Positions 7,999 through 19,513 of a stretch of DNA of 64,000 nt are shown piece by piece. Numbering within the stretch: the stretch's first letter is position 1; the number at the start of each line of letters is the position of its first letter. A model generated the notes under the pieces. That model saw only the letters and a program-made list of their open reading frames with translations. It did not search any database and had not been told where the DNA came from. Position numbers and translations under genes: made by a program. This DNA comes from Roseomonas sp. (GTDB taxonomy: Bacteria; Pseudomonadota; Alphaproteobacteria; Acetobacterales; Acetobacteraceae), in contig JADCFA010000019.1 in the NCBI GenBank assembly GCA_020249775.1, forward strand, positions 27,463-91,462, in the 5' to 3' direction.

Positions 7999-10900
7999 CT
8001 AAAGCTTCACCACCCCGGCACCGATCAAGCCCGCGAGCCGCGCCGCGATGGCGGTTTGCGCATTGGCATCCAGCCCCAGCAGGCGATGAATACCGGCGGC
8101 GAGTTCCGCTTCTGTTGTCACCGGGCGCAGCGCCAGGAGTTTTTCGGCAGCCGCAGCGATTTCGCGTGGCGAAACCGCAGCGGCGCGGCGTAAATGAGCG
8201 CCGGCCGCGCGGCGATCCCGCGGCACAATCGCGGCACCATCGGCCAAAAGAAAACCCTGTTCCTCCTTTACGCCGTGCAATTGCCGCGCAAGCGCAAGCG
8301 CCTGGCGCAACGCGTCACGCGCCGGTGTAGGCAGCGCTTCCAATCCCCATAACAACCGAACGCGTTCGGCAAGGCTTTCGGTTGTGATCGGCGATTCGAC
8401 AGTGATGATTTCAGCCAGAATGCCAGCGAGTGTGGCGAAGGGCACATCGGCAATGGCGGTGCTTTTTGGCACATCTGGCGCGGCTTCGCGGTAAGGCTCA
8501 ACGAGGCCGGTTTCTGGTGCGGGTGCTGCGGTTTCAACGCTTGCTGCGGCAGGTGCGGCGCCAAGCAAGGCAGCGATACGCGCGGCCTCGGCCTCTGGCC
8601 TGCCATACCAGGAAAGCGACCAGGCGCGCGCCAGTTTCCAGCCCATTGCCTCAAGCGCGCTGGCACGGCCCCTTTCACGGTCGCGTGCGGAGCGCAGCGC
8701 GGCCCAATCGCCGGCATCGGCTTCAATGCCCAGCACGTAATTGCCGGAATCGCGCGCTGCGACATCCAGAAAAAGCCCTGCCATACCCACGCGCGGCACG
8801 GCTTCCTTGCCCGCGGCTTCTATCGCCTTTCCAATGGCCGCTGCGATGGGCGCGGCCTGGGTTTTTGCTGCTGCGGTGCGCGGTGCCTCCCCGGCGGCGG
8901 CGAAGGCGAGGAAGGATTTCAGCGTCGCAACCCCGCGCCCCGAGGCGCGCGCAAGGTCAATGTCATCCGCACCGATTGAGGAAAACACAATGCAGCGCTT
9001 CTTGGCGCGCGTGATCAACACATTCAGCCGGCGTTCGCCGCCATCGGCGGAAAGTGGGCCGAAGCGCATGGCAAGCTTGCCGTCAGCGCCACGCCCATAG
9101 CCCACCGAAATCATGATCGAATCGCGTTCATCCCCCTGAACATTTTCCAGGTTTTTGACGAAGAAGGGTTCATCCGGATGCGCGCTGAAAAACGCTTCCG
9201 TATCCGCATTGTCGCGCCGCGCCGCCTCAACGGCATTCAGGATCGCATCGCGCTGGCGAATGGAAAACGCCGCAACGCCCAATGTATCGCCGGGCGTTTC
9301 GCGCGCATGGGTGATCACCGCTTCCGCAACCGCGCGGGCTTCTTCCGCATTGGTGCCGGTGCCGCCCGTGTCAAACCGCCCCTCAACGCGGCGCAGTGAA
9401 AGCCCAAGCGCGGCCGAACGCGCGCGCGGCGATGGCAGGATGAAAAGCCGATTGTCGTAAAACTCCGCATTCGATGTTGCGATCAGGCTTTCATGCCGGC
9501 TGCGATAATGCCAGCGCAGCATGGCCGATGGCAGGCCGCGCGCATTGCAAAGCCCGAGAATGCTTTCCACATCGCGCGCCGCAACAACATCGGACGCATC
9601 TTCGGCGGCTTCTTCCGCTTCTTCACCTGTCATACGCTGGAAGAAGCGCGTGGGCGGCATTTGCTTGTCGTCGCCCACCACCACCACCTGCCGGCAGCGT
9701 GCAATGGCGCCGAGTGCATCCACGGGTTCCACCTGGCTTGCTTCATCAATCACCAGCAGGTCGAAGGAAAGCCCAGGCCTCAGCCCATGCGGGGGGCTCA
9801 GGAATTGCGCCACTGAAAGCGGGCTCATCATGAAAATTGGCTTGGCCTTTTGCACGGCTTGCGACGCACGCAGCAACAATTCGCGCACCGGCAAATGGCC
9901 GCGCTTCTTTTCCATCTCACCGCGCAGCACCGCCATCCCTTGCGCGCCATCGCGCACTTCCTTCACGCGCTGCGCATGGGCATAGGCCGCTTCAGCGCGC
10001 GTCAGCGTGATGCGCGCGCGATCGGCTTCGCGGAAATCCTCAACCAGCCGATCCGCCGCCGCACCATCAAACGCCGCCAATTCCGGATGCTCTGCCATGG
10101 CAGCGCGGAGCAAGCCTTCATACAGCGCGAAGGAAAACACATCCTCCGCCGCTTCGGGCGCGACACGGCCATCGGCCAGGCGTTCCAGCAAGGGTTCAAG
10201 TCCGCTGGCCGAAGCGCCCGCGCGGCGCCAACCAAGCCAGGCATCAAGCGCTTCCGGCGCCGCCGCCCAATCGCCAAGCCGCGCGGCAAGGGCGGTGAAG
10301 GAAGGTTCATCCATGCCGAAGGCGATACGTCCATCAAACTTCGTTGCCTGCTGCATTTCCTGAAAGGCAGCCAGCGCCTTTTCCAGCGGTGCGGTGTCTG
10401 CCGGCTTGGCGCCATGCGCGAGTGCCGTCAGCGCCGCCGCGCCATAGGTCTTGCGCCATGCAAGCAAGGCGGTGAGCGGCGCGGGATCGCTCGCCTCATG
10501 CTGCCAGAGCGTGCCGAAAGCCGCGCGCCCCAAGGCATCGCCCAGGCGCAAGGCTTCGCGCGCAGCCTGTCCAGCCAGCGCGGCATCAAGCGCCGGCAGC
10601 GGGTTTTCCGCATCGCGCGCAACACGCGCCGCGAGCGCCTTGGCATCACGCCGCGCACCGGACAGAAAACCAAAAACGCCGCCCGCTTCGGCCAGCGTCG
10701 CACGCGCTTCCGTAATGCCGACCACATCCAAGGCGCCGGGTAAAAGCTGCGGATCAGCCTTGGCTTTTTGCAAATCGCCAAGTGCCTGCACCAGGGCTGC
10801 CAGCGGCGCCAGATCGCCCGCCCAGGCTTCATGCTTCAGCGCCGTTGCATCATGTGCGGGTGCCGCCGCCAAGGCAGGGTTCAAAGCGAGCGCAGCCTCC

Positions 10901-12513
10901 GCCTCCTTCGGCCCGGCCTCCGCCCCCAGCGTCGCACCGGCCGCAGCAAAGGCACGAATCCAGCCAGGCAACCGCCCCAGCAGCCGATCCACATCGGCCG
11001 GCCCGATTTCGGCCATCACGCCGCGCCAGGGGCTTTGCGCGCCGCCATCCGCTGCATAGCCGGCCAGCAACTTGATCGCATCGCGCCGCGCTTCAATCGC
11101 GCCCGCATCCCAATCCGTGACATTCGCGGCAAAATCCGGCGCGGCCACACCGCGTTGGCGCAAGCCAACCAGCGCGCCAATCACCTGATGCAGCGCTAGA
11201 CCCGAAGCACCGACCGTTGCGCGCATTGCCGCCGCATGGCGATTGATCCGCCCGCGCAAAGACCCAAGCCGGCGCACCACCGCATCACGATCAGGCTTGG
11301 GCGGCATGGGCAGGGATAGTGTCGCGCGCAATTCATCCAGCACCGCACGCTTTGATTGCTTTTCCGAATGTAATTCCAGGCAGGCGGCACCAAGGCCGAT
11401 ACTCTCCAGCCGGCGCTTCACTACCTCCAGCGCGGCGAGCTTTTCGGCCACGAACAAAACACTCCGCCCATCCAGCACGGCCTGGGCGATGATATTGCTG
11501 ATGGTCTGGCTTTTGCCGGTGCCGGGCGGGCCTTGAATAACAACATGCCCGCCGCGCCGGACCGCTTCCGCCGCAAGCGCCTGGCTGCCATCCACATCCA
11601 TCACATGATCAAGCCGCTCCACCGGGATTTCCGCATCCACGTCGGCGTCATCGGCAAAGACAGGCGGGATGGAAAGTGCCTCACCGCCCACCAGCGCGCG
11701 CACCATGGGGTGATCGGCAAGGCCCGGATTTTCCTCAGGCCCCAGGTCACGCCACATCAGAAATTTAGCGAAGGAGAATAGCCCAATCGCCAGCGCATCC
11801 GCATCCACCCGCCAAGTGGCGCGTTCCGTCACCAGCGCCGCGACGGCTTCCGCCCAGGCGGTGGGCGTATAGGCCTCAGCGTCGAAATCCGGTAGTGCGG
11901 TCTTGAAATTCACCTTCAGCATTTCGCGGAGCGATAGATTCTCCGCAATATCGCCCACCGTCCCGCGCAGCTTGAAATTCTGCGATACGCCCTCGCGCTC
12001 CAGCGCAACAGGCAGCAGCGCAAGCGGTGCGCGCCGTTCGGTCTCGGGTGTTGCGGGATCGCGCCAGATCAGCGCGCCAAGCGCCAGGTAAAGTGTCGGC
12101 ACGCCGGTTTCTTCGCGGGCCGTGCGCGCATCCTGCATGATGTCGCGCAGCCGGCGCACCAGATCAGCGGGTGGCAATTGCACGCGCAGCCTATCATCGC
12201 GCTGATAGTCTTCCCGCGCCGCATCGGCTTTGGCGGTGCCAATACCTTCCGGCTTTACCTTCGCGCTACGCGCGCGGCGCGGTTTGCCGGGGCTGGCTTC
12301 CTGAGGCACCGCTTCCGGCGCGGTGGCTGAGGCTTCAAAGCCAAAGGCGCGGCCTGCTTGCAGTGCGCCAAGCACGAAATCCGCATCCTCATCATCCAGA
12401 ATAATAACACCGCGCGATGCGCCCGGCTTTGGCAGTGAAAGCAGCCGGTTGCGCGTGGAAAGATCAAGCAAGCCCCTGCGGGCTTCTTCCAGCGCAGTGC
12501 GAAGATCCGTCAT
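7999..12513 (-). CDS. giant Upf1-like SF1 helicase with four parts: DUF4011-like N-terminus, AAA_11/AAA_12 core, restriction-endonuclease-like segment and DUF3320-like C-terminus
   Basis: - Walker A GPPGTGKS lies at 11509..11532.
- Helicase motifs LLVIDEASQV, VVVVGDDKQMPP, LRWHYRSRHESL, VQGDERD and LNVLITRAKK are present.
- The N-terminus LLDLSTRNRLLSLPK is typical of DUF4011.
- A nuclease-like segment YVLGIEADAG..RDRERGRASALEAMGWKLARAW lies at about 8608..8799.
- The start was chosen at the ATG at 12513 (MTDLRT); the ORF track start is 12537. Confidence 0.85.
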   Translation of the reverse strand: MTDLRTALEEARRGLLDLSTRNRLLSLPKPGASRGVIILDDEDADFVLGALQAGRAFGFEASATAPEAVPQEASPGKPRRARSAKVKPEGIGTAKADAAREDYQRDDRLRVQLPPADLVRRLRDIMQDARTAREETGVPTLYLALGALIWRDPATPETERRAPLALLPVALEREGVSQNFKLRGTVGDIAENLSLREMLKVNFKTALPDFDAEAYTPTAWAEAVAALVTERATWRVDADALAIGLFSFAKFLMWRDLGPEENPGLADHPMVRALVGGEALSIPPVFADDADVDAEIPVERLDHVMDVDGSQALAAEAVRRGGHVVIQGPPGTGKSQTISNIIAQAVLDGRSVLFVAEKLAALEVVKRRLESIGLGAACLELHSEKQSKRAVLDELRATLSLPMPPKPDRDAVVRRLGSLRGRINRHAAAMRATVGASGLALHQVIGALVGLRQRGVAAPDFAANVTDWDAGAIEARRDAIKLLAGYAADGGAQSPWRGVMAEIGPADVDRLLGRLPGWIRAFAAAGATLGAEAGPKEAEAALALNPALAAAPAHDATALKHEAWAGDLAPLAALVQALGDLQKAKADPQLLPGALDVVGITEARATLAEAGGVFGFLSGARRDAKALAARVARDAENPLPALDAALAGQAAREALRLGDALGRAAFGTLWQHEASDPAPLTALLAWRKTYGAAALTALAHGAKPADTAPLEKALAAFQEMQQATKFDGRIAFGMDEPSFTALAARLGDWAAAPEALDAWLGWRRAGASASGLEPLLERLADGRVAPEAAEDVFSFALYEGLLRAAMAEHPELAAFDGAAADRLVEDFREADRARITLTRAEAAYAHAQRVKEVRDGAQGMAVLRGEMEKKRGHLPVRELLLRASQAVQKAKPIFMMSPLSVAQFLSPPHGLRPGLSFDLLVIDEASQVEPVDALGAIARCRQVVVVGDDKQMPPTRFFQRMTGEEAEEAAEDASDVVAARDVESILGLCNARGLPSAMLRWHYRSRHESLIATSNAEFYDNRLFILPSPRARSAALGLSLRRVEGRFDTGGTGTNAEEARAVAEAVITHARETPGDTLGVAAFSIRQRDAILNAVEAARRDNADTEAFFSAHPDEPFFVKNLENVQGDERDSIMISVGYGRGADGKLAMRFGPLSADGGERRLNVLITRAKKRCIVFSSIGADDIDLARASGRGVATLKSFLAFAAAGEAPRTAAAKTQAAPIAAAIGKAIEAAGKEAVPRVGMAGLFLDVAARDSGNYVLGIEADAGDWAALRSARDRERGRASALEAMGWKLARAWSLSWYGRPEAEAARIAALLGAAPAAASVETAAPAPETGLVEPYREAAPDVPKSTAIADVPFATLAGILAEIITVESPITTESLAERVRLLWGLEALPTPARDALRQALALARQLHGVKEEQGFLLADGAAIVPRDRRAAGAHLRRAAAVSPREIAAAAEKLLALRPVTTEAELAAGIHRLLGLDANAQTAIAARLAGLIGAGVVKL

Positions 12514-12517
12514 GCGG

Positions 12518-12679
12518 CTATTTTTTCCGCAAGGCAAAGGTGATCAGCAGCACGCAGCCAACCAGCGCCAGAATGGCCAGCATGCCCTGGACAACCTCAA
12601 AATTCGGCGAGTCAGGATGGATGAAAATGGACGCAGCCGCGGCGCCCATCATCAGCAGGGTTTGCAGTATCCATTCCAT
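12518..12679 (-). CDS. hypothetical 53-aa two-TM membrane peptide, below the 60-aa cut-off of the ORF track
   Basis: My own translation is MEWILQTLLMMGAAAASIFIHPDSPNFEVVQGMLAILALVGCVLLITFALRKK. A G-rich Shine-Dalgarno (GAGGGG) lies about 7 nt upstream of the ATG at 12679. The TAG at 12518..12520 lies 4 nt before the helicase ATG. Confidence 0.35.
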   Translation of the reverse strand: MEWILQTLLMMGAAAASIFIHPDSPNFEVVQGMLAILALVGCVLLITFALRKK

Positions 12680-16211: not shown

Positions 16212-16286
16212 TGGAGCGGGCGGGGGGAATCGAACCCCCGACATTCAGCTTGGGAAGCTGACGTTCTACCTCTGAACTACGCCCGC
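16212..16286 (-). tRNA. tRNA-Gly (anticodon CCC)
   Basis: I folded the cloverleaf by hand on the reverse complement.
- Acceptor stem: GCGGGCG/CGCCCGC.
- D stem: GTTC/GAAC.
- Anticodon stem TCAGC/GCTGA with loop TTCCCAA.
- T stem GGGGG/CCCCC with loop TTCGATT.
- The CCA tail is encoded. Confidence 0.93.
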
Positions 16287-16529
16287 GCCGCGGTGGGGAT
16301 ATACCCGCCAGGTTAGGGGTTGGGCAAGCTCCTCGGCATTGCGGGCCGGAATGGTGTTGTCAATTACGTCGGGGCACTCACGGTCCTCGCTTGTCTGGCA
16401 GGGGCGACGATTAAGGGAAAGCCTAGTTGAGCTAAATCTGCCCTTCCTGGGCTGCAACCGGCCCGTCCCTCACGGAACAAACCGATTTGCTCAAGATTGG
16501 ATTTCATCCACCCGTGATCTGGGCTAAAA

Positions 16530-17603
16530 ATGGTTAATGCCGCAATTCTCTTATTTATGCTCGTCGGTTGTGCGGTGAGCACCGCTGCCGGGTTAAAGGG
16601 ACAGCCCCCGTTCAAAATACTCTCTCTAAGCGGAGGGGGCTATCTTGGGCTGTATTCGGCTTCCGTGCTCGCGGCACTAGAAGAACGCATTGGAGAACCT
16701 ATTCACTCGCGCTTCGACCTCATTGCTGGAACGTCAGTCGGTGGCATCATCGCGTTAGGCTTGGCTGCTGGGGTCAGAGCCGCAGACATACGCGATACTT
16801 TTCGTTCGAAGGGCGTAGAAATCTTTTCTGGTCGGGGGGCGCCGAAGGGCCATTTCTCTGCCTTGTGGGACATATGCCGCTCCGTCCTGCGGCCGAAATA
16901 TAGCAATGCAGCACTGCGCCGAGTTATCGTCAGCTTGGTAGGTGAAGAGCGGCGCCTCGGCGATTTGGACCGCCCCGTCTTGATCCCCGCCGTGAACCTA
17001 ACAAAGGGAGGGCCGCAAGTCTTTAAAACGCCGCATCACCCCCACTTTCAGCGAGACAAACTACTCAAAGTTGTTGATGTCGCGCTCGCCACCTCAGCCG
17101 CTCCAACTTTTTTTCCTATTGTGGAGATCGAGTCATCTTTATACGCGGATGGTGGATTATTCGCCAATTCGCCGGACTTAATGGCAGTGCATGAAGCCGA
17201 ACATTTTTTCAAAATTCCCAGAGAAAGAATCCAGTTACTTAGTATCGGTACTACGACATCTTCCTTCTCGTTTTCTCACAGCACATCTCGCGAATTAGGC
17301 TTATTTGGGTGGGCGAAGAATCAAAGGCTTATCCAAGCGATGCTGGCATCTCAGCAGCAGATGGTACGCCACATGCTCGAGCATTCGCTGGAGGATAGAT
17401 ACCTTCGTATAGATACCTTCCAGTCCGCAGAGCAGCAGAAGGATTTAGTTTTGGATGTGGCGAACGAAGCGGCGCAGAAGACCTTGATCGGTTTAGCTGA
17501 TGCTAGTTCCCAGGGGGCCATCAACCAGAGGCTTGTCATGGCGATGCTTTCGCATCGAGCGGATACCACTTTGTTCATTGAACCCCGTATGGACCTGAGG
17601 TGA
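16530..17603 (+). CDS. patatin-like phospholipase, the CapV/CapE-type CBASS effector candidate
   Basis: - Oxyanion hole: GGGYLG.
- Nucleophile elbow: GTSVG, with the Ser codon at 16734..16736.
- Catalytic Asp: YADGGL.
- At 357 aa it is about the size of CapV.
- Its stop overlaps the next ORF.
- The start is ambiguous: ATG 16530, ATG 16557 or GTG 16575. Confidence 0.85.
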   Translation: MVNAAILLFMLVGCAVSTAAGLKGQPPFKILSLSGGGYLGLYSASVLAALEERIGEPIHSRFDLIAGTSVGGIIALGLAAGVRAADIRDTFRSKGVEIFSGRGAPKGHFSALWDICRSVLRPKYSNAALRRVIVSLVGEERRLGDLDRPVLIPAVNLTKGGPQVFKTPHHPHFQRDKLLKVVDVALATSAAPTFFPIVEIESSLYADGGLFANSPDLMAVHEAEHFFKIPRERIQLLSIGTTTSSFSFSHSTSRELGLFGWAKNQRLIQAMLASQQQMVRHMLEHSLEDRYLRIDTFQSAEQQKDLVLDVANEAAQKTLIGLADASSQGAINQRLVMAMLSHRADTTLFIEPRMDLR

Positions 17604-17608
17604 TTTGC

Positions 17609-17944
17609 ATGGGCTTAGCGTCAAGCTTTTTCTTTAGCTCGAATGATAGCGAGAAGCAGACATTATATCGGCGCGTTACCCCGACAGAGGCGCAATTCGA
17701 TGCACAAACAACACGTTGGAATGAGCTTGCCGAGTATCTGCTCTCGGACCTTAAATCAACCACCGGATATCCAACCAGAAGTTGGCTTCAGGGCAGCTAT
17801 AAATTTGGGACACAAGTCCGCCCGCCTTCCAAGTTTGGAGAATTCGACATTGACCTTGGGATATACTTTGAATGGGAGGGCAACCCGGATGCGGCAGGCT
17901 ATGACCCATCCGAATTGCAGGGACTAGTTCAAGACTGCCTCTAA
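17609..17944 (+). CDS. N-terminal fragment of the CD-NTase (GS and DxD motifs)
   Basis: This is the alternative description of the previous entry, as it would be called by a gene finder. It terminates at the TAA at 17942..17944. Confidence 0.55.
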   Translation: MGLASSFFFSSNDSEKQTLYRRVTPTEAQFDAQTTRWNELAEYLLSDLKSTTGYPTRSWLQGSYKFGTQVRPPSKFGEFDIDLGIYFEWEGNPDAAGYDPSELQGLVQDCL

Positions 17945-17980
17945 AGATACGCAAACGGTAGAGCGGAAATCAAGAGTGTT

Positions 17981-19006
17981 GTGCGACCACCTAAGAAACG
18001 CTGCTGCCGTATTCACTACAAAGATAACTTTCATATCGATGTTCCCTGTTATCATCTCGATCCGACGCGTGACCATCGGAGTTTGGCCACATTAGACGGC
18101 TGGGAGAAGAGCGATCCGAAGGCACTCTATGTCTGGTTCCGCGATAGCTTCGAAGAAGCCGACCGGGCAAAAGTTAGGCGACAAATCAAATACTTAAAGG
18201 CATGGGCGGCGCTGAAATGGAAAACTGATGCGGGTCGGCCCTCTTCGGTCCTGCTAACCGTTCTTGGAGCCGAAGCTGCAAAGAGGGTTCCTCTTTCTCA
18301 GCCAGATGATGATTTACTAATTTCAATATTGAACGATATCCACCGCCGTATGGTTGCCAATCCAGTTATTTCGAATCCTACGAACAAGACCGAGAACCTA
18401 AACCGACTTGAACACGCGCAAAATCTAGAGTTCGTGGATCGGCTTTCCAAGTTTAAGGACGTCGCGGACCGGGCTCGTGAGGCTGCGGAAGAGAGCACGG
18501 CAGCAGTCGTTTGGGCCGAGGCGTTCGAACATTTTTTTCCGATGCCTGAGCTCGGAGAAAGCTCAATTTCCCTGCAAGCAATGAATAAGTCGGGCGCACT
18601 GGTCCCGATTACACTACCGGATATCCACGTCACCGCGGTCAACAAGGAAAATCCGCACCTTCGGTATGCGGGCACTAATTGCATTGGCCCCATCCCGAGA
18701 AACTGCACCCTTACCTTCACTATACCGGAAGCCTGGCGGCTTCCTCATGGCGCCACCGTGGAGTGGGTGGTACGTAACGGTGAGGGAGAAGCGGAGGCGG
18801 AAAATGACCTCGGTCACTCAAGTGGGATAGGTACAACTAAAACGGAGACATCTGCTTATAATGGGACGCATTTCATGGACGTTATCTTCAGAGTGAGTGG
18901 CGACATCATCGGTGCACGACGAGTTACCGTGACTGTTCGAGATGTGCCAATCCGGAAACGCAATCCTCCACAGCCGCAATATGTAAGGCTACGCGGGCGG
19001 CGATGA
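17981..19006 (+). CDS. C-terminal fragment of the CD-NTase (third catalytic Asp, helical lobe, AGS-C-like extension)
   Basis: This is the alternative description. Its GTG start has only a weak upstream purine run. The in-frame sense codons at 17945..17980 argue that it is a fragment and not an independent gene. Confidence 0.5.
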   Translation: MRPPKKRCCRIHYKDNFHIDVPCYHLDPTRDHRSLATLDGWEKSDPKALYVWFRDSFEEADRAKVRRQIKYLKAWAALKWKTDAGRPSSVLLTVLGAEAAKRVPLSQPDDDLLISILNDIHRRMVANPVISNPTNKTENLNRLEHAQNLEFVDRLSKFKDVADRAREAAEESTAAVVWAEAFEHFFPMPELGESSISLQAMNKSGALVPITLPDIHVTAVNKENPHLRYAGTNCIGPIPRNCTLTFTIPEAWRLPHGATVEWVVRNGEGEAEAENDLGHSSGIGTTKTETSAYNGTHFMDVIFRVSGDIIGARRVTVTVRDVPIRKRNPPQPQYVRLRGRR

Positions 19007-19051
19007 GCCTATTTCGACTGTCTCTCTTTGATCGCCTGTGTAGTCATAATC

Positions 19052-19513
19052 TCACCCCTCAGCCGCCTTATCCCGCGCCGCCGTCGCCAGCGCATCCGCG
19101 CGTTCATTCATGGGGTCGCCGGCATGGCCGCGCACCCAATGCCATTCAATCTCATGCGGCTTGGCCGCGGCCAGAATGGCCTGCCACAGATCAAGGTTCT
19201 TCACCGGCTCCTTCGCCGCATTGCGCCAATTGGCGCGCACCCAGCCATGGATCCAGCGGCTGATGCCGTTCCGCAGATATTCGCTATCGGTATGCAACGC
19301 CACGCGACAGGGTTTTTTCAGCGCCTCAAGCGCCTTGAGTGCCGCGGTCAATTCCATGCGGTTATTGGTGGTCTCGGCCTCACCGCCTGAGAGCTCTCGT
19401 TCATGCTCGCCAAAGCGCAGAATGGCGGCCCAGCCGCCGGGGCCGGGGTTGGGTTTGCAGCCGCCATCGGTCCAAATCTCGACCAAGGGGCGCGGGTCAG
19501 CGCTGCCAGTCAC
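19052..19513 (-). CDS. rnhA: ribonuclease HI
   Basis: It contains [27 protein letters not shown] and [14 protein letters not shown], and is 153 aa long. Confidence 0.95.

Follow-up and report, generated by a model that had tools for sequence, protein, structure and literature searches.

Probable recent pseudogenization of a type I CBASS cyclase by a single nonsense mutation beside an intact lipase gene

The window, which is the whole 64 000-nucleotide stretch of DNA analysed here, carries a two-gene islet between a tRNA-Gly gene and rnhA (Table 1). The GC profile of the islet is about 50–55%, compared with about 63–67% in the flanks. Its two genes encode a complete patatin-like phospholipase and a CD-NTase (17609–19006, + strand), and an in-frame TAA (17942–17944) lies inside the CD-NTase gene. 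Between 16330 and 19051 only these two genes are present, with no integrase, transposase, Cap2/Cap3, HORMA/TRIP13 or type IV genes; since no further gene lies between tRNA-Gly and rnhA, the system is of type I. A locus in a Roseomonas sp. metagenome-assembled genome (L001) shows the same order of tRNA-Gly, lipase, cyclase, rnhA and thrB, and its rnhA, at the same position, is 95% identical at the amino-acid level. The islet can also be absent. In a contig of run X23, position 16291 is joined to 19052 via 38 nt homologous to window positions 16292–16329, and run X22 contains loose contig ends that match the X23 empty site. These empty-site contigs come from two unrelated freshwater metagenomes, and in them the tRNA flank runs straight into rnhA. 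The contigs, together with the homology of the filler to 16292–16329, indicate that the islet covers about 16330–19051 and is variably present among related strains.

Table 1. Features of the CBASS islet and its flanks, in window coordinates.
Feature	Position	Strand	Evidence or remark
tRNA-Gly(CCC), conserved left flank	16212..16286	-	ARAGORN; Rfam tRNA 73.7 bits; also flanks the Roseomonas MAG L001 locus
Two-gene type I CBASS islet	16330..19051	+	About 2.7 kb; GC profile, empty-site contig
Patatin-like phospholipase, CapV-like, intact	16530..17603	+	Pfam Patatin 1e-27; PADLOC Effector PDLC00757 6.9e-119
SD-like GAGGTG	17596..17601	+	7 nt 5′ of ATG 17609; read from sequence
Cyclase codons 1–111	17609..17941	+	GS 17792–17797, DxD 17846–17854
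Premature TAA, codon 112	17942..17944	+	G>T at 17942, from GAA (Glu)
Cyclase remainder, codons 113–465 and normal TGA, expected to be untranslated	17945..19006	+	PDLC00824 positions 113–465, E 7e-116
Pro449Arg, window lineage	18953..18955	+	CGG versus CCG in other populations
rnhA (RNase H), conserved right flank	19052..19513	-	Pfam RNase_H 1.6e-45

Several features of the surroundings are recorded here in their own right. The islet is placed 5′ of tRNA-Gly and not on the usual 3′ side. An imperfect 13-nt direct repeat, CCCGCGCCGCGGT at 16282–16294 and CCCGCGCCGCCGT at 19072–19084, lies near both islet borders, and in GC-rich DNA it is probably due to chance. A promoter and terminator scan gave a site count no higher than in shuffled sequence. 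The protein encoded at 7999–12537 (− strand), about 4 kb from the islet, is 1512 aa long and combines DUF4011 with an SF1 helicase region (AAA_11/AAA_12) and an MTES_1575 restriction-endonuclease-like domain. Its match to the PADLOC candidate defence model PDC-S37 is full-length (1468 bits) and that to Hhe is partial, and its gene is a second candidate defence gene.

The lipase ORF is full length. Its score against NCBIfam NF041079, ‘CBASS cGAMP-activated phospholipase’, is 388 bits (cut-off 200), and it retains the motifs GGG (residues 35–37), GTSVG (67–71) and DGG. The dN/dS value of the lipase is 0.13 relative to L001 and 0.09 relative to L004, a locus from a JGI metagenome. The lipase stop codon (TGA 17601–17603) overlaps the SD-like GAGGTG of the cyclase, so the translation of the two genes is probably coupled. 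The ORF of the lipase opens with a hydrophobic 15-residue extension, MVNAAILLFMLVGCA (16530–16575), which does not occur in the 342-aa gene calls of its relatives; translation may in fact begin at the GTG near 16575, giving the 342-aa form, or the extension may be an N-terminal membrane or signal-like addition in this allele. Compared with L004 (window 16530–17603 against L004:771–1799), the lipase has a dS of 0.79, as against 0.20 for the adjacent cyclase; this contrast makes the islet alleles look mosaic and points to recombination within the operon.

We then consider the interrupted cyclase gene. A preliminary description of the window had placed the ORFs 17600–17944 and 17981–19006 in the same frame, and this is borne out by the sequence. 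The 12 codons past the TAA read RYANGRAEIKSV, and HIDVP then follows at a spacing like that in the homologues, also as described; this motif spans His142–Pro146 and includes the codon for the third Asp (GAT 18038–18040). Two details of the ORF coordinates change. First, the frame stands but the ORF-caller start GTG 17600 does not, and ATG 17609 (MGLASS…) takes its place; this is almost certainly the true cyclase start, judging from the homologues, which all begin with MG. Second, GTG 17981 is only the first start-like codon past the stop and is the internal codon of Val125, and directly before it lies codon 124 (GTT 17978–17980), a residue that varies between Val and Ile.

Read through the stop, with X at that position, the cyclase comprises 465 aa from ATG 17609. 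Residues 1–462 align to positions 1–465 of the 466 positions in the PADLOC cyclase model PDLC00824 (E 1.8e-163), and the Pfam DncV-like NTase domain (PF21654, 2.6e-19) crosses the stop, covering residues 57–148. This end-to-end match and the domain across the stop show that both ORFs come, in collinear order, from a single gene and are not chance neighbours. The read-through also scores 193.7 bits against NCBIfam NF041078, ‘CBASS cGAMP synthase’ (cut-off 150), and contains the complete GS…DxD…D signature (Gly62-Ser63, Asp80-x-Asp82 and Asp144). Codons 1–111, which are expected to be the sole translated part of the cyclase, match PDLC00824 positions 1–110 (E 4.4e-41) and positions 2–55 of the 90 in the Pfam DncV-like NTase model. 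The third catalytic Asp lies in the remainder, together with the helical lobe, a disordered linker and an Ig-like AGS-C domain (about 18626–18937). This C-terminal domain is recognized by Pfam AGS_C (PF18134) with E about 1.4e-11 to 2.3e-11, and Pfam DncV_C is also matched.

To place the break in the fold, we used an AlphaFold2 model of P0001, an intact protein that is 97% identical to the window cyclase (pLDDT 89, pTM 0.87). The best PDB match of this model is Bacteroides fragilis CdnB (7LJO), with a TM-score of 0.88 on the target; Deinococcus CdnB (DwCdnB) and DncV come next. Judged from these nearest structures alone, the cyclase appears to be clade-B-like. The model contains a disordered linker at residues 317–332 and an Ig-like β-sandwich at residues 340–443, which corresponds to Pfam AGS_C. 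Residue 112 lies in helix 100–115, between the strand that carries Asp80 and Asp82 (residues 79–88) and the strands at 121–167, which carry Asp144. On this model, the 111-aa product keeps GS, DxD and two core strands, whereas five core β-strands, the catalytic Asp144, the helical lobe and AGS-C are missing from it. The chain is thus cut before the third Asp and inside the catalytic core, so the 111-aa product should be inactive and catalysis should be lost in the TAA allele.

The TAA itself is real. It is present without differences across the site in five runs (X1–X4 and X21), each from a separate sample of study P1, in Logan contigs of 4–22 kb and 8.6–17× depth that were assembled independently. 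The preliminary description had listed a sequencing or assembly error among its explanations, to be recognized by a sense codon at 17942–17944 in the reads, and that option is rejected, as the contigs of all five P1 runs have T at 17942. An organism that really has GAA would need only a single-base error, given that GAA alleles are found elsewhere; however, the same T in long, otherwise identical contigs of five separate assemblies, at a site outside any homopolymer or repeat, makes an artefact extremely improbable. The TAA allele is the dominant one in the sampled population; since Logan contigs drop minority variants, a minority GAA subpopulation may exist in the source samples. The five samples belong to a single study and perhaps to one source culture or site, and they exclude error rather than provide evidence of spread. 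Exact sequence words with the TAA were found in this one study only, and every other listed run, from about ten other studies, has just two of the five sampled words. Among RNA runs, none was found that contains the locus.

In run X6, from another study, a contig identical to the window stops at 17940, directly before the variable positions 17941–17944, which fits either a bubble between TAA and GAG alleles or low coverage (about 5×). The window strain is thus present in X6, but the position of the contig end makes this run uninformative on the allele at codon 112.

Related populations reveal the codon that preceded the stop. Contigs of X8, X23, X24, X32 and X25 have G at 17942, giving GAA (Glu), and for X23 this is the sole difference from the window over 191 nt. 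X5 and the JGI loci L004 and L005 have CTT GAG at the site, again encoding Glu, and the GAA and GAG contigs together span at least six other freshwater studies. At the protein level, Glu occupies the codon 112 column in P0001, the closest intact protein (465 aa), and in P0007. The orthologue in L001 has Asp (GAC) at this column in an uninterrupted ORF of 468 codons (465 aa from its ATG). More distant homologues have Lys, Thr, Gln, Leu or Ile, next to an invariant Leu111. Because Glu is found in the related populations and in the closest intact protein, the polarity, which is taken from Logan contigs and protein alignments, is GAA to TAA by one G>T transversion: the TAA is derived and the ancestral codon is GAA. 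The earlier reading of the lesion as a point nonsense change is borne out, GAA was among the five sense codons then listed as one substitution away, and the alignment of orthologous cyclases that was proposed as a check shows Glu or Asp at the column among the closest alleles and in L001.

The same alignments bear on the architecture of the gene. We identified 732 homologues (E < 1e-10). Among the best 120, 119 are single chains of 429–485 aa, nearly all of 456–470 aa, and the exception, P0007 (280 aa), is a frameshift fragment; this sole split relative represents the L004/L005 allele and is broken elsewhere, at about codon 270. Orthologues naturally split at codon 112, which would have spoken against a nonsense mutation, were thus not found among the best homologues, and L001 is likewise a single ORF. 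A natural two-gene architecture is ruled out by the 732 homologues and by the syntenic L001 orthologue. Scans of metagenomes and genomes returned one close locus, L001, and two relatives at about 45% identity. A full-length cyclase homologue of 45% identity, L002 (JAZKFG010000002.1, 6001–7356), lies on a contig of 292 kb whose label, Patescibacteria group MAG, names a host in which an AGS-C CBASS cyclase would not be expected.

A real stop codon could still be bypassed in translation. In the window, TAA terminates 9 of the 47 long ORFs, including that of LytB/IspH, and the ORF of the 1512-aa helicase ends with TAG, so the earlier view that both act as ordinary stops is upheld. Judged by the stop usage in these 47 ORFs of the window, codon reassignment is very unlikely. 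Low-level read-through or suppression could in principle supply enough full-length cyclase for residual function, as the 353 downstream codons are still open and conserved and the base 3′ of the TAA is A; an A after the stop codon is not the strongest termination context. On the other hand, both release factors recognize UAA, which leaks less than the other bacterial stops and is a normal terminator in this DNA. No suppressor tRNA was found in the 64 000-nt window and no recoding RNA element at the site, where Rfam on the region gives the tRNA alone. A young mutation accounts just as well for a downstream frame that is still open. Taken together, residual function through read-through appears very unlikely.

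The fragments could alternatively work together, with the 111-aa N-terminal fragment and a C-terminal fragment re-initiated, for example, at GTG 17981, assembling into an active cyclase. This GTG lies 36 nt past the stop and is preceded by a weak AAGAG; yet the codon and its context are ordinary coding sequence that is common to the intact alleles. When proteases nick a surface loop of CD-NTases, the enzymes stay assembled and even gain activity (PMC12991175), which shows that backbone continuity is not always needed. The activation loop of those enzymes, however, lies past the third Asp (residues ~184–218 in EcCdnG) and is described in clades A, D and G (PMC12991175); it is at another position and does not belong to AGS-C or clade-B-type enzymes. 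The idea that the TAA site is such a protease activation loop is ruled out by this difference in position and clade. Moreover, the break falls in a helix of the catalytic β-sheet core according to the model, none of the homologues consists of two genes divided at codon 112, and fragments translated separately would need to form the fold from two chains, whereas a nicked enzyme is cut after it has folded. A functional two-chain cyclase is hence scarcely credible. The preliminary description had ranked read-through and a two-chain enzyme as less likely, and the normal use of TAA as a stop, the lack of split orthologues and the break in the catalytic core agree with that ranking.

The age of the lesion was assessed from substitution rates. 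The islet genes have dS values of 0.37–0.50 relative to L001, and flanking rnhA and thrB have 0.33–0.37; with such flank-like values, the islet has stayed at the same site since the two species split. The dN/dS of the cyclase is 0.17 relative to L001 (0.11 upstream of the stop and 0.19 downstream) and 0.18 relative to the frame-corrected L005 allele. The value of 0.17 implies purifying selection on the cyclase during nearly all of the time since the split from L001. No second stop or frameshift occurs in the 353 codons downstream of the TAA. The low dN/dS and the lack of further lesions indicate that the knockout of the cyclase is recent. Polarization with P0001, P0002, P0003 and P0007 identifies six replacements specific to the window, all downstream of the stop, a distribution that is not significant under a uniform expectation (P ≈ 0.19). 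The sole radical replacement of the six is Pro449Arg, in the C-terminal tail past the AGS-C domain, at a position conserved as Pro in at least 90% of the homologues. X23, X22 and part of X6 have C instead of G at 18954, and X6 shows both alleles. Pro449Arg is possibly the first sign of relaxed constraint.

The cyclase has also been damaged in a sister allele. L004 and L005, from two separate JGI metagenomes, carry an allele with 92% nucleotide identity and GAG at codon 112 (L004:1805–2683 and L005:127–1525). In this allele, a +1 insertion of C near window position 18417 (CACGCCGCAA versus CACGCGCAA) splits the cyclase by a frameshift into ORFs of 280 and 190 aa, and the 342-aa lipase in L004 is intact. 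The frameshift in the sister and the nonsense mutation in the window indicate that the same gene was disabled twice independently.

This recurrence raises the question of why the cyclase was lost. Its loss may have been selected repeatedly, for example owing to a cost of autoimmunity or abortive infection, with the lipase spared as harmless without its signal. The independent frameshift beside an intact lipase and the occurrence of island-free strains are in line with such selection, as is the observation that 2 of 17 type I CBASS operons cloned in Escherichia coli were toxic (10.1101/2023.05.21.541620). Nevertheless, two lesions in about five distinct alleles are also in line with the neutral turnover of defence genes, which is typically high, and the cyclase (1.4 kb) is a bigger target than the lipase (1.07 kb), so two cyclase lesions are not improbable. 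We regard selected loss as a tentative and rather doubtful proposal; it refines the reason for the loss and is no alternative to pseudogenization itself. A further reading goes beyond this. It combines recurrent selective loss of the cyclase with retention of the lipase under selection as an orphan effector, maybe fed by another cyclase in the genome, or else lets the cyclase halves reassemble with altered regulation, by analogy with the protease-nicked CD-NTases; we consider this reading quite improbable.

The reading that we favour, with a probability of about 0.9, is a recent pseudogenization of a type I CBASS cyclase by a single-base nonsense mutation, with the lipase intact. The locus is a minimal type I CBASS operon, in which the intact CD-NTase-AGS-C enzyme would make a cyclic nucleotide on phage infection, presumably cGAMP as the NCBIfam naming suggests. 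The patatin phospholipase encoded next to the cyclase would respond to this signal and kill the infected cell. The G>T change turned Glu112 (GAA) into TAA, so that translation would stop after 111 residues; the truncated cyclase would give no signal and the system would be off, leaving an intact lipase deprived of its activator. We infer that phage defence has been lost and that the lipase is now idle. Recent inactivation of the signal generator with the lipase kept was the first of the explanations offered initially, and the full-length lipase and the ancestral Glu codon support it.

This reading has practical consequences. In annotation, the ORFs 17600–17944 and 17981–19006 should be treated as one pseudogene of a CBASS cGAMP-synthase-like CD-NTase with a nonsense mutation at codon 112, and not as two hypothetical proteins, and the strain should count as CBASS-defective even though its lipase gene is intact. 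Four states coexist in one freshwater lineage, namely the intact operon, the nonsense allele, the frameshift allele and the empty site. The locus is thereby a modest natural snapshot of defence-system turnover, which could help population studies of what abortive-infection systems cost and how they decay, and it has no bearing on open mechanistic questions.

Finally, we compared the locus with known systems. It has the CD-NTase signature, an adjacent effector and no ancillary genes, as type I CBASS does, but its cyclase ORF is not intact; it is a disabled, otherwise typical member of type I CBASS, with a CdnB-like-AGS-C cyclase and a CapV-like lipase. CD-NTase-AGS-C fusions are a hallmark of type I CBASS and occur almost throughout clades B and H (10.1101/2023.05.21.541620). 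Like those systems, the window locus combines a cyclase with one effector and has no Cap2, Cap3 or HORMA gene, and its cyclase shares the C-terminal Ig-like AGS-C domain, with CdnB (7LJO) as the best fold match. It differs in that the cyclase is cut at residue 112 and in having a patatin lipase as effector. Its host is a freshwater Roseomonas-like alphaproteobacterium and not a gammaproteobacterium.

Activation of a patatin effector by cGAMP is established for CapV, and the window locus resembles the DncV–CapV pair of Vibrio cholerae in its logic and gene order, with the lipase preceding the cyclase (PMC6042076, PMC12480259). Both genes of the window pass the NCBIfam cGAMP equivalogs, the product being assigned by family name only. 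In sequence, the window cyclase is only weakly similar to DncV (E of about 1e-9 to 1e-11). Unlike the window locus, the V. cholerae system is of type II with Cap2 and Cap3, and DncV belongs to clade A and lacks AGS-C. The protease-nicked EcCdnG, DncV and CdnD demonstrate that a CD-NTase can work as two polypeptide chains (PMC12991175). Their nick is post-translational and falls in a disordered loop of about 30 aa past the third Asp, in clades A, D and G, whereas the break in the window is genetic and interrupts a helix that precedes the third Asp; no such loop is present in the model.

A literature search on CBASS cyclase pseudogenes returned nothing specific. The locus belongs with ordinary defence-gene pseudogenes, which are nonsense or frameshift alleles in variable defence islands: one point mutation disables it, its accessory islet of low GC occurs in some strains and is absent from others, and a sister allele has a frameshift. 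The window locus shows an interrupted conserved domain, a sense codon at the site in orthologues and a base that is reproducible among contigs, as is characteristic of a nonsense pseudogene. In summary, it is an ordinary defence-gene pseudogene, and nothing of substance sets it apart from others of that kind.
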